Source: Myxococcota bacterium (lineage in GTDB: Bacteria; Myxococcota; SpSt-1050). From it: a DNA stretch of 64,000 nucleotides. The notes under the pieces were generated by a model that was not told the origin of the DNA, did no database searches, and saw only the letters and a program-made list of their open reading frames with translations. The stretch spans positions 22,546-86,545 of the forward strand of contig JBMFOP010000001.1 of assembly GCA_049969675.1 (NCBI GenBank), written 5' to 3'. Positions 12,105-57,347 of this stretch are shown piece by piece (positions within the stretch are counted from its first letter, which is position 1; every line of letters begins with the position of its first letter). The position numbers and the translations under genes are program-made.

Positions 12105-13352
12105 ATGCAGAGGCTTATAAAATGCAGAGGTTCAAAAGGAATGGCAATGCTCATGGTTGTAACCATTATTGCCATTCTTGCCACAATGGCTATGGACTTC
12201 TCCTATGAGGCTATGATAAATCTGCAGCTTACCTCTACTTATAGAGACGAGGTGAAGGCGTACTTCCTTGCACACTCGGCGCTGAATATCTCCCGACTGG
12301 TAATATTTTATCAGAAGCAGCTGGATTCTATGTTGAAGAGTAATAACCTTGCACAGGTGTTAGGTGGTAATATCCAGCTCTTCAGGCTTATCCCTATTGA
12401 TAGCGAATTTACAAAGTCCTTTGCCAGTGGTGAACTCTTCTCATCGCTGGGCTTTCAGGAGATTAAGGAGGAGAGACCTACCCCTATGAAGGATGTTGAG
12501 AAAGATGAGGGAGAGGGGCGGGCATTTGCAGGGAAATTTGGGGATTTTGAAGGATATTTCAAAGCCAGTATAGAGGATGAAGAGTCAAAGATATCTGTAA
12601 GAAACTTTGATGCCACCCCGTCTCTTAGAAATTTTGCTATGACACAACTTATGCTTTTAATGCTACCGCAGCAGTACAATCCAATCTTTGAAAATAGGGA
12701 TATGGACAATCAATATACAACCCGTGAGGATATAGTGGTGGCACTCAAGGACTATCAGGACATAGATGATAAACAGTTTGACCTCCTCACACAGCAGGAC
12801 ATCGGCCCACCTGAGGATCTATTCTACTCGGCACTTGAAAGGCCATATCAGACAAAGAATGCGCCATTTGATTCTCTTGAGGAGTTAAGGATGGTAAGAG
12901 GTGTGGGAGAGGTCTTCTTTCATAACTTTGCAGATAGGCTTACCATCTATCCCATAAAGAAATTCAACCTCGCAAGCCTTGACGACAGGATGATTTTGAA
13001 CATAATCTGTATGTTTATTAAGGACAGGAATCACCCCATCTGCACAGACCCAACATATACATCTCAACAGAACCTCCTCAGGCGGTTTCAGGAATATAAG
13101 GAGATGAAGATGAGTCAGAACCCGCTATTTGTGGTATCTGTTCAGGATATAAAGGAATTCTGTAACCTTGAGGGGATTATCCTCCATGATGCAATACTTG
13201 GTGTAGGTAAGATGGAGGAGCTGCTCACAATGGAGAGTTCATATTTCAGGATTGAGACCATAGGAGTTGTAGGTAGTGTAAAGAAACGAATTACCGCAGT
13301 AGTATATGCAGATAAATCCAGATCAGAACTTTTGTATTACAGAGAGGATTGA
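12105..13352 (+). CDS. gspK: minor pseudopilin GspK-like
   Basis: Start MQRLIKCRGSKG then MAMLMVVTIIAILATMAM. The prepilin-like helix lacks E+5, as is typical for GspK. GAGGT RBS at 12097-12101. About 416 aa with a large periplasmic domain. Confidence 0.55.
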   Translation: MQRLIKCRGSKGMAMLMVVTIIAILATMAMDFSYEAMINLQLTSTYRDEVKAYFLAHSALNISRLVIFYQKQLDSMLKSNNLAQVLGGNIQLFRLIPIDSEFTKSFASGELFSSLGFQEIKEERPTPMKDVEKDEGEGRAFAGKFGDFEGYFKASIEDEESKISVRNFDATPSLRNFAMTQLMLLMLPQQYNPIFENRDMDNQYTTREDIVVALKDYQDIDDKQFDLLTQQDIGPPEDLFYSALERPYQTKNAPFDSLEELRMVRGVGEVFFHNFADRLTIYPIKKFNLASLDDRMILNIICMFIKDRNHPICTDPTYTSQQNLLRRFQEYKEMKMSQNPLFVVSVQDIKEFCNLEGIILHDAILGVGKMEELLTMESSYFRIETIGVVGSVKKRITAVVYADKSRSELLYYRED

Positions 13353-16260: not shown

Positions 16261-16564
16261 CACATCTGTCCAAAATAATTTTTTCATTGAAGCCATAAGA
16301 TATTTAATCTTTAAGAGGGGCTTTATATGAATATGGATTGCAGCAGTTTTTGACAAATCCTACAGATAGACCCTTTAAGACCCCACCAATTGTGCCTGAT
16401 GTAGGGAAACCAACATTGAAGGTTACAAAAGTTGGACAGCATTTAGAAGAAATTATATTGAAGAAAAGTGGGCAACCCGATCTTTAAAATGTGAATTTAT
16501 CCATACAAACCCCTTATTTTACAAATAGTTAAATTCTCAAAGGAGATTGTTTTGGACAGCAGTG
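16261..16564. mobile_element. MITE-like repeat, short (internally deleted) copy
   Basis: Ends CACATCTGTCCAAAATAA (16261-16278) and TTTTGGACAGCAGTG (16550-16564) form imperfect terminal inverted repeats. The arm is about 75% identical over about 135 bp to the arm of the 55291-56050 copy, in opposite orientation. Confidence 0.6.
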
Positions 16565-19974: not shown

Positions 19975-20038
19975 GAGATGGAGATATTGTGGTAAAATTT
20001 TTATAACCAGACATCCGCCGTACGGAATAATCTGTAAA

Positions 20039-20120
20039 AGATATCTGTCCAGAATAAGTCTTTAGTAAAAGGCTTTTGCAGATGTAAAATTATTCATATC
20101 TATATGGAGTTGAATCACAA
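20039..20120. mobile_element. solo end / fragment of the same MITE-like repeat family
   Basis: AGATATCTGTCCAGAATAAG at 20039-20058 matches the atct-type TIR. The following about 60 bp share the ...tatatgga.ttgaat... block with the other two copies. No opposite end was found. Confidence 0.4.
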
Positions 20121-20968
20121 AAGCCAGAATCTTCAATACAGTCTTGATATTCATAAAAATACTCCTTTCTGTCCCTGAGCCTGCCCTCAGGAACCTGATT
20201 TGATTCTGGCTGGCAGGAGCCTGTTTCTTTACTTACCCTGTAACTTAAATGCCATGGCTGATGCAATCAATGGTCCAGATACAGCCCCAGATAGTAAAGA
20301 AGTAACTACAGAATAGGCAGCAAAACTCCCTGGTACTCAAGACTGCAATGTCGTTTCTCCCTATCATATAAGTTTATCAGTTGTTTCATAATGCTGTGCG
20401 CAATTATGGGGCACCACCAAATTTTTGAATATAAAAATTTTATGGGAAGGCTTTTTCATAAATGGGATAAGAGAGGGAAATAATCTGGCAGGGACTATTC
20501 TGTTTCAATATCAATTCTTTCATAGTATTTCCCATCATTGCTGTTCTCTCTCTTCTCTTTTTGTGTTATGCTCTCTTCCTCTGGAATTGAATCTTCAATA
20601 TAGAGTGGTAATTGGATTTCCCTACGCCTTTCTCTTCTTTTTTCCTTCTTCAATTTTTCAATAATGAAGGCGTCTAACATAAATCTCACCACCTTTCAAA
20701 TTACCAGTATGCATCCCTTGTGCCAGAAAATAATGCATAAATATCAATATGTTAGGCTTGAGCCCCCTTAAACTTTGTGACAATATTGTCATATTTACGA
20801 ATTCTTGCATAGCCTGATAAATATATGTTTGAGCAAGGCAATTGACAACTTTGTCAGAAATTTAAAATAAGTATAAAATAAATTCCTTATTTTTATAAAT
20901 ATTGTATTCTGACTGTGGTGTATGTGGGATTTTTCTTTAACATCTTATACTATGGAGAGAATGTGATT

Positions 20969-21958
20969 ATGAAAAAGGGAGTAGTATTATTTCTTTTATT
21001 GAGCTTTCTCCCCTCAATTCTTCCTGCCCAATCGTTAGAGGATATACAATTAAAGAAGAAGGAGGAGAGGCCTCCAATGCTTGATCTGGGCTTTTTGGGG
21101 ACTTTTGAAGGTTCTATGGGAATTAATGCAGATAGACCTGAATATTACAATGTTGTTTATGTGGCTCCTCAACTTAAGATAGGACAGTTTATACGGGCAC
21201 AGCTGAATATGACTATGAACAGGGCTATCCTTGGTAGGCAGGAAAATGCCTTCTCCTGGACACCTGAGGATTTCTCTCTTGAGTTTGCCCATCTCAAAAT
21301 CTATAAGGAGCCTTTTACCGGAATCAGCCTCTCGGCTCGAGCAAGATATTATATTCCTACCTCCAAGCAGTCACAGGATGCCAACTCTTATGGGCAGATG
21401 AGAGGATATATTAAATTCTCTTATACTATCTGGAGATTATATTTTGCAGCAGAATTTAACGCGCAAAAATACTTCAACGAGTACTATACATGGAATACAA
21501 AGGAGGAGGTTGGGACGGAGAAGTGGTATCATCAGGCTGGTAAAGATGAATATGTAGAGAATAATACCTCCTACGGATTTGGCGAGACATATACTGGTTC
21601 TATCAATATTGCTGATGGGCTTGATTTCTCTCTTATATGGGGGATGTATCAGAGCCAGAAGTATTCACCTGATAGTGGTCATCCGGAGTCATCTGGTAGC
21701 AGTTATTTGCAGCTTCCAAGAAGTACTGTCTGGGGTCACACCTATAGATTTGCCGCTGATCTTACCTATGGAATTGGGAGTATTCCTGCAATAAGGGACT
21801 CAGAGACACTTAAAGGAACTCCAGTACCAAATCTGTATATCTCATTAGGATATTCTATTTTTGCACCACAATTAAAGAATGGCGGAAGGGAATCAAATTT
21901 GAATCCGTTTGATCCGAAATATGCCCAATTATATGCAGATTTAAGTCTTGTATTTTAA
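20969..21958 (+). CDS. predicted outer membrane beta-barrel protein (uncharacterized)
   Basis: Signal peptide MKKGVVLFLLLSFLPSILPAQS. Alternating amphipathic strands rich in aromatics. C-terminal ...LSLVF with terminal Phe (OMP signature). 23 nt upstream of the metzincin gene. Confidence 0.5.
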   Translation: MKKGVVLFLLLSFLPSILPAQSLEDIQLKKKEERPPMLDLGFLGTFEGSMGINADRPEYYNVVYVAPQLKIGQFIRAQLNMTMNRAILGRQENAFSWTPEDFSLEFAHLKIYKEPFTGISLSARARYYIPTSKQSQDANSYGQMRGYIKFSYTIWRLYFAAEFNAQKYFNEYYTWNTKEEVGTEKWYHQAGKDEYVENNTSYGFGETYTGSINIADGLDFSLIWGMYQSQKYSPDSGHPESSGSSYLQLPRSTVWGHTYRFAADLTYGIGSIPAIRDSETLKGTPVPNLYISLGYSIFAPQLKNGGRESNLNPFDPKYAQLYADLSLVF

Positions 21959-55258: not shown

Positions 55259-55290
55259 ATATAAATATTTTTTATTTTTTTACTTTTACT

Positions 55291-56050
55291 CACTGCTGTC
55301 CAGAATAATCTGTTTAACAAGTTTACTATTTGTAAAATAAGGTATTTTGTACAGGTAAATCCATATTTTCGAATCGGATTTCACCCTTTTCTTCCATACA
55401 CTATCTAATAAAATGCTGTCCAACTTAAATAACCCTAATGTTAGTTGCTCTACATCAGACACAACAGGACTGTCTGCCGTCGCACAGACAGGTAAAGTCT
55501 CATAATGTTTATTTGTTCATTCACATAAATTTTTGTATAGTAATTCTTATTTGAAAGCCCGACAAAGTTAAAATCAAGCCAATAATCACTTTTTTATATG
55601 TCCATTTGAATGACTTTGCTTTGTGTTCATCGTTGTATTTAATGACCTTCCCCATATTTTCAATGAATATCTCTTCATTCAACTCAATTCTCTTGCCTTT
55701 CTGCTTATAGAAATTTTCTACTTTCTATAATAAATATTTTTTCATTAAAGCAGCATATGGTCTTAAACACTTTTTTCACTATAATATTTTTAACACGCCC
55801 CGGTGGTGACTTTTTTCTAATGGAGTAAATAGATAATCCATAAACATTGCTACAAATTGCTCCCAACAATTAAATCTATTTGCCCCATTATCAACCCTTG
55901 TCTCTCTTACCGCCTTATAAAACATATTTATAATCAATATTTGTAGAATTTATTAAAAATTAAATCAATTCATATTCATATAAATCCTTAACTCTTCAAA
56001 ATTCAATATCTAAAAGGTCTAAAGTTAAAATTTATTCTGGACAGATATGT
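55291..56050. mobile_element. MITE-like non-autonomous element, long copy (about 760 bp) with about 18-bp imperfect TIRs
   Basis: Left end CACTGCTGTCCAGAATAA (55291-55308). Right end TTATTCTGGACAGATATG (56033-56050), perfect over the 13-bp core CTGTCCAGAATAA. The interior is AT-rich and non-coding, with an internal AAATGCTGTCCAACTT sub-repeat at 55404. Homologous to the 16261-16564 copy. Confidence 0.65.
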
Positions 56051-56099
56051 ACATAACTTAAATTTTGTTTTACATCGCGCAAATTTTAATATAGTATAT

Positions 56100-57347
56100 G
56101 TGGTTATGAACCGATTATTTAAATTTTTATTTACCAGTTTAGTCTTATCAGCAATTTCCTGTTCGGTTGATTACTCCCTGCTAAATAATAGACAATGCGA
56201 CAGTGAAGGTAGATGTGTCGCTGGATATGTATGTGATAGAGCGACTATGACCTGTGTCAGAGAAGGCTCTATGCCCGGAAATGATGCTGGGACCCTGCCC
56301 GATATCATAAGAGATGAAATCTCAATTTTGGATACAGAAATGCCAGATTCAGAAGAAGATGCTGGCTGCAGACCTACCAACAATGGGATAGAGATATGCG
56401 ATGGGATAGACAACAACTGTGATGGCAGAACGGATGAGAACTATGTATGCGGAAGCTGTACCTTAACTAATTCCATTACAGAGCAATGCAATGAATCTAC
56501 AAAGTGCGATAAATGCTTTATAGTGAATGGTGAAAAATATAGATGTGTCTCTGTGGACGGTTTAGATTTTAACTGGCGTAAAGAATCTGAATTGATTTGC
56601 GATTCTTCAAAATCTATAAAGGCAATAAAATGTGAAAACATCTGTCAATTGTGTGATGGAAATAAATTTTCTGACCCATTTATCATTCAGAATGAATCCT
56701 GCGATGGAAAAGACAACAATTGCGATGGAAAAATAGATGAGGGAGATATATGTCCCACCAATAATATATGTGTAGGTGGAAAGTGTATAGAAAGACCATG
56801 TCAGAAGAAGGAGGATTGCCCCCCGGAGAAAGTCTGTAAAGAGAATAAATGTCAATCCTGCACAGAAGTCGTGGATGATTCGCTGTGCGGTTCAGGTAAG
56901 ATATGTATCAATGGTGCCTGCATAGATGGCGATTGCCATCAGAATACTGATTGTTCTGGTGGTATCTGTGTATCCAATAAATGTTGTACAGGGTGTTGTG
57001 CAAAAAAGGATGATTGTCCAGCAGAACTTGTTTGCAAAAAGGGACTAAATGAACAAATCGGAAATTGTGAGAGTTGCACTGATATAATAGATGACCTGTT
57101 ATGTGGTTTTGGTTATATCTGTGAAGGCAATAAATGTATAAAAGGTGAGTGTCATCCTAATATTGGATGTCTCCTTGGGAAGATATGTGTCAACTATAAC
57201 TGCTGCAATCCCGGACCGACCTGCTGTAATAAGGATGGTGACTGTAAATCAAATATGACCTGCACCCAGAATCATACCTGTGATTGTAAGCCACTCTTTG
57301 GAGATTGCAACAATAAATATGATGATGGCTGCGAAAAAGACCTTTGA
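56100..57347 (+). CDS. secreted cysteine-rich repeat protein with MopE-like CDGxDNNCDG metal-binding-type motifs
   Basis: Signal peptide MVMNRLFKFLFTSLVLSAISCS. About 70 Cys. CDGIDNNCDGRTDE and CDGKDNNCDGKIDE motifs. Repeated CxxGxCI(x)xxC modules. Ends at a TGA that is followed in frame by more of the same repeats. Confidence 0.6.
   Translation: MVMNRLFKFLFTSLVLSAISCSVDYSLLNNRQCDSEGRCVAGYVCDRATMTCVREGSMPGNDAGTLPDIIRDEISILDTEMPDSEEDAGCRPTNNGIEICDGIDNNCDGRTDENYVCGSCTLTNSITEQCNESTKCDKCFIVNGEKYRCVSVDGLDFNWRKESELICDSSKSIKAIKCENICQLCDGNKFSDPFIIQNESCDGKDNNCDGKIDEGDICPTNNICVGGKCIERPCQKKEDCPPEKVCKENKCQSCTEVVDDSLCGSGKICINGACIDGDCHQNTDCSGGICVSNKCCTGCCAKKDDCPAELVCKKGLNEQIGNCESCTDIIDDLLCGFGYICEGNKCIKGECHPNIGCLLGKICVNYNCCNPGPTCCNKDGDCKSNMTCTQNHTCDCKPLFGDCNNKYDDGCEKDL

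Follow-up and report, generated by a model that had tools for sequence, protein, structure and literature searches.

A non-autonomous element downstream of asnS in a Myxococcota genome, probably derived from an IS4-family insertion sequence

Element A and its surroundings

The locus belongs to a Myxococcota bacterium MAG (NCBI record) and was analyzed within a 64-kb stretch of DNA, hereafter the window. Downstream of asnS, whose product was correctly named from the sequence alone (Pfam tRNA-synt_2; NCBI name asparagine--tRNA ligase), lies a unit that we call element A (Table 1), followed by a gene for a Cys-rich protein (56100-57347). Its product is a 415-aa protein with a signal peptide and numerous Cys-rich repeat modules (...CxxGxC..., DNNCDG motifs); the protein collection has no exact copy of it. 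The right terminal inverted repeat (TIR) had been placed about 50 bp upstream of the gene start, and we find 50 nt between A and the start region (GTG at 56100, ATG at 56106). A search of the whole window with Rfam at gathering thresholds returned two tRNAs only, with zero matches in element A. Near the window's end, two 77-nt direct repeats (63436-63512 and 63700-63776, 264 nt apart, 79% identity) probably correspond to a repeat inside an encoded protein.

Table 1. Coordinates of element A, its parts and its relatives in the window, with the target duplications of the related full-length IS
Feature	Position	Strand	Remarks
Element A, 759 bp	55291..56049	- (strand of the former transposase gene)	Probable non-autonomous IS4-family derivative
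IRR-type terminal inverted repeat (transposase-distal)	55291..55308	+	CACTGCTGTCCAGAATAA
IRR arm, 174 bp	55291..55464	+	Common to copy B
Interior, 371 bp	55465..55835	.	AT-rich, unique in the window, no conserved ORF
Transposase N-terminus relic (DUF4372 region, ~42 codons)	55836..55961	-	In-frame stops
IRL arm	55942..56049	-	Former 5' UTR, RBS-like AAGGA, start region ATGAATATG..., first transposase codons
IRL-type terminal inverted repeat (transposase-proximal)	56032..56049	-	CATATCTGTCCAGAATAA on the minus strand
Copy B, 304 bp	16261..16564	+ (inverted relative to A)	IRL arm, ~25 bp, IRR arm
Copy C, solo IRL-type end (GATATCTGTCCAGAATAAG...)	20041..20104	+	Downstream of trxB
9-bp target duplications of the 1388-bp IS	L035, L036, L037, L038, L040		AGTTTGGAT (L035), AGTCAGAGG (L036), ATGTTCACT (L037), AAAATTACT (L038), AATGAAGTT (L040)

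The right end of A reads TTATTCTGGACAGATATG, an imperfect reverse complement of the left end. The sequence-only reading had located the left repeat exactly and the right one at 56033-56050, 1 nt off its actual position. The perfect 13-bp inverted-repeat core that it described is indeed present: CTGTCCAGAATAA occurs exactly three times in the window, at 55296 (+), 56032-56044 (-) and 20045 (+), and a window scan adds near-matches at 16266 and 16547. In 64 kb of AT-rich DNA, it would be no great surprise to meet one 13-bp inverted pair within 1 kb by chance; the pair of A goes beyond chance because long arms recur in the window. Both ends start with 5'-CA (CACTGCTGT... and CATATCTGT...) and have T at position 9. 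The interior was rightly described as AT-rich (29.6% G+C vs 38.9% for the window) and free of intact ORFs, the longest interior ORF being at most 58 aa, with none conserved.

The IRR arm contains the conserved blocks CTGTCCA, TTTGTAAAATAAGG, GTACAGGTAAAT and ATGCTGTCCAA, which recur at loci L007, L011 and L020. The end core also recurs along this arm: the tip has CTGTCCA, ~55 nt inward there is an inverted GTACAGG/GGACAGG, and ~120 nt inward ATGCTGTCCAA. These repeats are kept at the same loci, and we infer that they are putative extra transposase-binding sites. The differences between copies in the arm blocks are not compensatory, and an RNA structure is therefore unlikely. Where the homology between A and copy B stops, a hairpin is found at 55473-55493 (CTGTCTG CCGTCGC CAGACAG; perfect 7-bp stem, 7-nt loop). 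The sequence of its 3' half, CAGACAGGTAAAG, is similar to GACAGGTAAAT, a subterminal block in the IRR arm, and the hairpin may be a piece of another arm.

At the opposite end of A, an AAGGA/ATG start region of the former transposase gene lies near 55979 on the minus strand, and the translations of the IRL arm (MNMN.. in A, MNMDCSSF.QILQI in B) parallel MNRFSSIFGQILHLF of L007 and of the 390-aa transposase P0095 described below. Using hmmsearch with a profile built from 106 full-length transposases, we obtained a match on the minus strand from 55961 to 55836, covering profile positions 7-48 (i-E 4.4e-9). With tblastn, the same piece is 46-49% identical to transposase residues 20-54 (E 3e-6), and it matches Pfam DUF4372 at E 5.9e-5 with 23.6 bits, just below the cut-off of 25. 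Judged by these similarities, the true relic in A is the N-terminal DUF4372 part of a transposase.

A 45-aa minus-strand ORF (MGKVIKYNDEHK...) had instead been suggested as a possible relic. The ORF exists, at 55521-55655 within the interior, but it bears no similarity to the transposase, and in two contigs with identical AsnS (L001 and L002, discussed below) it has a stop at codon 8. Neither this ORF nor the neighboring small ORFs have a Pfam match besides the DUF4372 piece, and they are not conserved in sister strains. Since the 45-aa ORF has no family match and is stopped at codon 8 in sister strains, it is neither gene nor relic. The interior as a whole did not significantly match any arm, any full-length IS copy or any other part of the window, and the transposase profile found nothing in it. 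Consequently, internal deletion and decay leave part of the interior, these 371 bp, unexplained.

Full-length relatives of element A

The sequence-only reading had proposed a search for a longer, transposase-encoding copy. The window holds no intact transposase gene of A's family; related sequences elsewhere do. We scanned species-representative genomes for two conserved arm blocks in the pattern CTGTCCA-N25-32-TTTGTAAAATAAGG, which led to loci in Syntrophaceae and Desulfobacteraceae MAGs. L007 carries a 1175-bp defective element (524-1698) with both end types of A and a 230-aa ORF (Pfam DDE_Tnp_1, 4e-24) on the strand running from the CATATC end to the CATTGC end. Upstream of the ORF is a frame-disrupted N-terminus, MNRFSSIFGQILHLF...GFSCRDQF..., and the L007 copy thus contains an IS4-type transposase pseudogene. 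The flanks of this copy (ATGAATCAT/ATGAACCAT) match at 8 of 9 positions.

Some pattern matches were set aside. Those in L003, L005 and L008 are a conserved coding stretch in Firmicutes and are chance or unrelated matches. Nine contigs of a termite-gut metagenome (L010, L013-L019, L022) share one locus with the block order CTGTCCAAAG, N27, TTTGTAAAATAAGG, then TAGACAGGT; it has no CACTG tip and no transposase nearby, and we take it for a product of chance or for a distant locus with an unrelated use of this motif.

Homologues of the transposase number at least 8000 in metagenomes, all at E<=1e-10 and mostly on contigs of ~1.5 kb. The full-length ones are 388-390 aa long and combine PF14294 (DUF4372) with PF01609 (DDE_Tnp_1), and one NCBI record among them, from Syntrophorhabdus, is named IS4 family transposase. 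P0095 reaches 276 bits with the NCBIfam model transpos_IS4_1 (cut-off 115), and its motif YKDRWQIEIFFKTIK has the spacing Y-2-R-3-E-6-K, that is, the complete YREK signature of the IS4 family. Identity to named ISs is low overall (36-41%), the nearest named transposases in plasmid records being of the ISPosp4 and ISAbe18 family (~37%).

The P0095 gene occurs at eight different sites in one metagenome assembly (L033-L040), and the block common to these sites defines an intact IS of 1388 bp at 99-100% identity. The IS begins with CACATCTGTCCAAAATAG, 101 nt ahead of the start codon, and ends with ...TTATYTTGGACAGCAGTG, 114 nt past the stop. At five of the eight sites, the IS lies between perfect 9-bp direct repeats (Table 1). 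In L035, the first 125 bp of the IS (the IRL arm) are tandemly duplicated (1275-1399 and from 1400), and the target duplication pairs with the outer copy of the arm.

The ends of A are those of this IS base for base, and they align to its positions 1-22 and 1365-1388 (L033/L036). Furthermore, A, B and the IS have the same two distinguishable end types, CAYTGCTGTCCA... distal and CAYATCTGTCCA... proximal to the transposase gene; for A and the IS they are also given as CACTGCTGTCC... (distal) and CACATCTGTCC... (proximal). The IRR type is found elsewhere at window position 16564 (-), L001 11341, L007 524, L011 4350, L020 2423/633 and, in L033-L036, 2787 (-). The IRL type is found at window position 16261, L001 12124 (-), L007 1698 (-) and, in L033-L036, 1400. 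The full-length ISs come from other organisms, and their DNA has diverged from the window arms beyond the terminal ~22 bp and a few blocks; therefore, the true parent element of A is still unseen.

A DDE_Tnp_1 transposase with YREK is present in the full-length relatives that share A's ends and absent from A. Since A keeps only a transposase relic, it is a derivative of the family and not an IS in its own right. Altogether, these comparisons point to A as the derivative of an IS4-family element that has suffered internal deletion and decay and is no longer autonomous, a reading to which we assign a probability of about 0.9.

Related copies, mobility and strain history

The claim of a dispersed repeat family holds for the window, since A shares its arms with copy B and the solo end C; further ends lie on sister-strain contigs. 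The left arm of A (55290-55464) is ~83% identical over ~175 bp to 16565-16390, and the right arm (55942-56049) is ~80% identical over 108 bp to 16364-16261 in copy B. The arms thus do recur, at 175 and 108 bp and not at the ~135 bp given earlier. Copy B, bordered by the end of a gene and by a long stretch of non-coding DNA, has both ends and omits the middle 477 bp of A. Copy C sits in a 940-bp gap without long ORFs (19975-20915) between trxB and the next gene, and no partner end for it is found within this gap. A 61-aa minus-strand ORF (MLDAFIIEKLKKEKRRE...) at about 20500-20685 is also called by gene callers in sister strains (L044 3979-4164).

Contigs from three other same-species assemblies, L041, L044 and L045, start inside B (at window positions 16470, 16521 and 16521), and the sister-strain contig L041 ends inside C, at 20104. 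Such assembly breaks point to near-identical copies of the arms elsewhere in the genome. Together with the strain-level break in synteny inside A described below, they are what dispersed repeats usually show.

The probable parent type of A is an IS of ~1.4 kb with a single gene for a DUF4372 + DDE_Tnp_1 transposase, 5'-CA ends and a 9-bp target duplication. From it, A retains both TIRs, ~175 bp of the distal arm, ~108 bp of the proximal arm and ~42 degenerate codons of the transposase N-terminus; B is a member of the family that has been shortened further, and C is a solo end. A cannot move by itself, and any movement would need the transposase of a full-length relative elsewhere in the genome. 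Supplied in trans, this transposase would bind the CAYNNCTGTCCARAAYA ends and probably also the repeated CTGTCCA blocks of the arms. A would then be cut and pasted with a 9-bp duplication, as is expected from the full-length relatives and from IS4-family (IS10/IS50-type) transposition.

The label "MITE-like" is a fair description of A as a TIR-bounded, non-coding, dispersed repeat derived from a transposable element. Recent mobilization in trans is less secure: the target duplications are degenerate, the window contains no autonomous copy, and an IS remnant that decays in place would account for A equally well. Specifically, a check for target-site duplications, as had been suggested, found no clean one around the window copies. 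The flanks of A (ACTTTTACT vs TACATAACT) match at four of nine positions and those of B (ATAAATAAT vs ATATTTAAC) at six of nine, a level reached in ~5% of cases by chance in AT-rich DNA. In addition, A and B are only ~80% alike and of unlike structure, whereas a homogeneous MITE family that had been amplified recently would look different.

In the strongest competing account, A goes back to an autonomous IS that entered the DNA behind asnS and afterwards suffered deletions and decay in place, B and C are independent old insertions with the same fate, and none of the three was ever mobilized as a short element. It would fit the degenerate target duplications and the piece of transposase gene still held by A, as well as the differences in length and internal content among A, B and the L001 version and the identity of only ~80% between arms. 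Solo ends are also common (C in the window; L001 12125-12169 and 21150-21215; L011; L020). On the other hand, neither A nor B has lost a single base at its two ends, and the 13-nt core is intact or almost intact in both; the arm-plus-arm structure of B is that of a classic MITE, and the assembly breaks inside B and C imply further near-identical arm copies. Taken by itself, we consider decay in place nearly, though not quite, an even bet, and the odds between a trans-mobilizable MITE and a remnant decaying in place are roughly even. Either way, the assignment of A to IS4-derived DNA is the reading that we carry forward.

A second account concerns the unity of the element. L001 and L002, two independent MAG contigs that encode an identical AsnS, agree with the window at 99.5% identity from 43951 into element A. 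Within A, the identity is 100% up to ~55625, ~90% to 55757 and ~50-70% over what is left of the interior and over the IRL arm. The switch falls at window positions 55625-55850 (L001 11675-11895), and after the element, L001 and L002 have a PEGA-domain gene in place of the Cys-rich gene, with ParA-like and RecG genes also downstream. Compared with the element of L001/L002, the right part of A thus belongs to a paralogous member of the family. This points either to recombination between dispersed copies with rearrangement or to one assembly having been joined wrongly across the repeat. In composition, the sequence on the right of A matches the rest of the window (tetranucleotide r 0.956), and therefore both halves around A come from the same genome.

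The 759-bp unit could then be a join of two family copies, an asnS-linked left one and a right one from upstream of the Cys-rich gene, produced by homologous recombination of dispersed copies within this strain or by misassembly across the repeat. Such a join is suggested by the fall in identity inside A and the different gene that follows, it is compatible with the shared tetranucleotide composition of the two halves, and it would explain the missing target duplication of A. However, the L001/L002 version, flanked by ACTTTTACT and TATAGACAT, likewise has no matching target duplication, and an exact-protein look-up did not find the reciprocal junction, the proteins encoded to the right of A having no exact record elsewhere. 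We consider a join possible but on the unlikely side; it would alter the history of A and not its identity as IS4-derived DNA.

Comparison with other genomes did not supply a clean empty site. In a more distant relative (L042/L043, 76% nucleotide identity), no element follows asnS, and the downstream genes also differ, so that the site is not a clean empty one. For B, an exact-protein look-up of the flanking genes returned none on record. On L001, a 45-bp solo IRR-type fragment (12125-12169) abuts the IRL end of the element in inverted orientation, and a solo IRR arm of ~65 bp (21150-21215) lies upstream of an FHA-domain gene; these solo fragments look like nested or truncated insertions of A's repeat family.

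Neighboring gene, significance and known systems

The position of A next to the Cys-rich gene raises the possibility of an outward promoter. IS10, an IS4-family element, has such a promoter, pOUT, and in A the transposase-proximal end likewise faces the neighboring gene. In contrast to IS10, the last 110 bp of A contain no outward match in a consensus promoter scan. The sole plus-strand sigma-70-like match upstream of the Cys-rich gene (56069-56097) lies outside A, in the 50-nt gap, and the scan overall is uninformative, with 4 sites vs 6.4 expected from shuffles. By analogy with pOUT, it could be proposed that the proximal end of A drives or modulates the gene for the Cys-rich secreted protein and that recombination between copies swaps the gene downstream of asnS between strains. 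We judge this combination improbable; if true, the repeat family would be a switch point for surface or secreted-protein genes (Cys-rich here, PEGA-domain in L001/L002).

We give hardly any credence to the alternative that CTGTCCAGAATAA is bound at promoters by a regulator of the host. The right end of A does lie 50 nt upstream of the Cys-rich gene and the L001 solo end (21150-21215) ~80-145 nt upstream of the FHA-domain gene, but the motif forms the very termini of an IS that encodes a transposase and makes 9-bp target duplications, its spacing and orientation to genes vary (C is downstream of trxB, B lies next to a gene end), and it is always accompanied by a co-conserved arm of 100-175 bp. 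We rejected the idea on these grounds.

With A read as IS4-derived DNA, the value of the result is mostly practical. For an uncultured Myxococcota genome, ~1.1 kb of DNA that counted as "non-coding" can now be annotated as IS4-family debris, and the ends (CAYNNCTGTCCARAAYA) and the 9-bp target duplication are defined for a very abundant, unnamed IS4 lineage. The junction downstream of asnS reflects either a rearrangement specific to the strain or a misassembly caused by the repeat, and users of the MAG should check it. A itself is a leftover of an ordinary IS4-family element and raises no new biological question.

Among known systems, the IS231-MIC231 group of Bacillus cereus comprises mobile insertion cassettes (MICs) of the IS4 family, which carry intact passenger genes. 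A resembles MIC231 in having IS4-family ends around DNA other than a transposase gene, with an interior (55465-55835) unrelated to the transposase, and by analogy it might be mobilized in trans in principle. Unlike a MIC, A has no conserved interior ORF, and its 45-aa ORF is interrupted in sister strains. We therefore rejected A as a mobile insertion cassette, given that its interior ORFs have no family match and that this ORF is stopped in L001/L002.

MITEs arise from bacterial ISs through internal deletion, examples being the IS630-derived RUP and Correia-type elements. A (759 bp) and B (304 bp) resemble them in being short, AT-rich, non-coding, intergenic and dispersed and in carrying both TIRs of the parent IS. 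They differ from such families in that the two complete copies in the window are heterogeneous, ~80% alike and flanked by degenerate target duplications.

The closest correspondence is with the IS4Sa subgroup, defined by CA------T ends, direct repeats (DR) of 8-10 bp and a length of 1150-1750 bp (Table 1 of De Palmenaer, Siguier and Mahillon 2008, PMC2266710). The full-length relatives agree with it in their 5'-CA ends, T at position 9, 9-bp DR, length of 1388 bp and one DDE_Tnp_1 transposase. A differs in having lost the transposase save for ~42 N-terminal codons, but it has the same ends as these relatives and, on the basis of ends, duplication length and size only, best fits IS4Sa.
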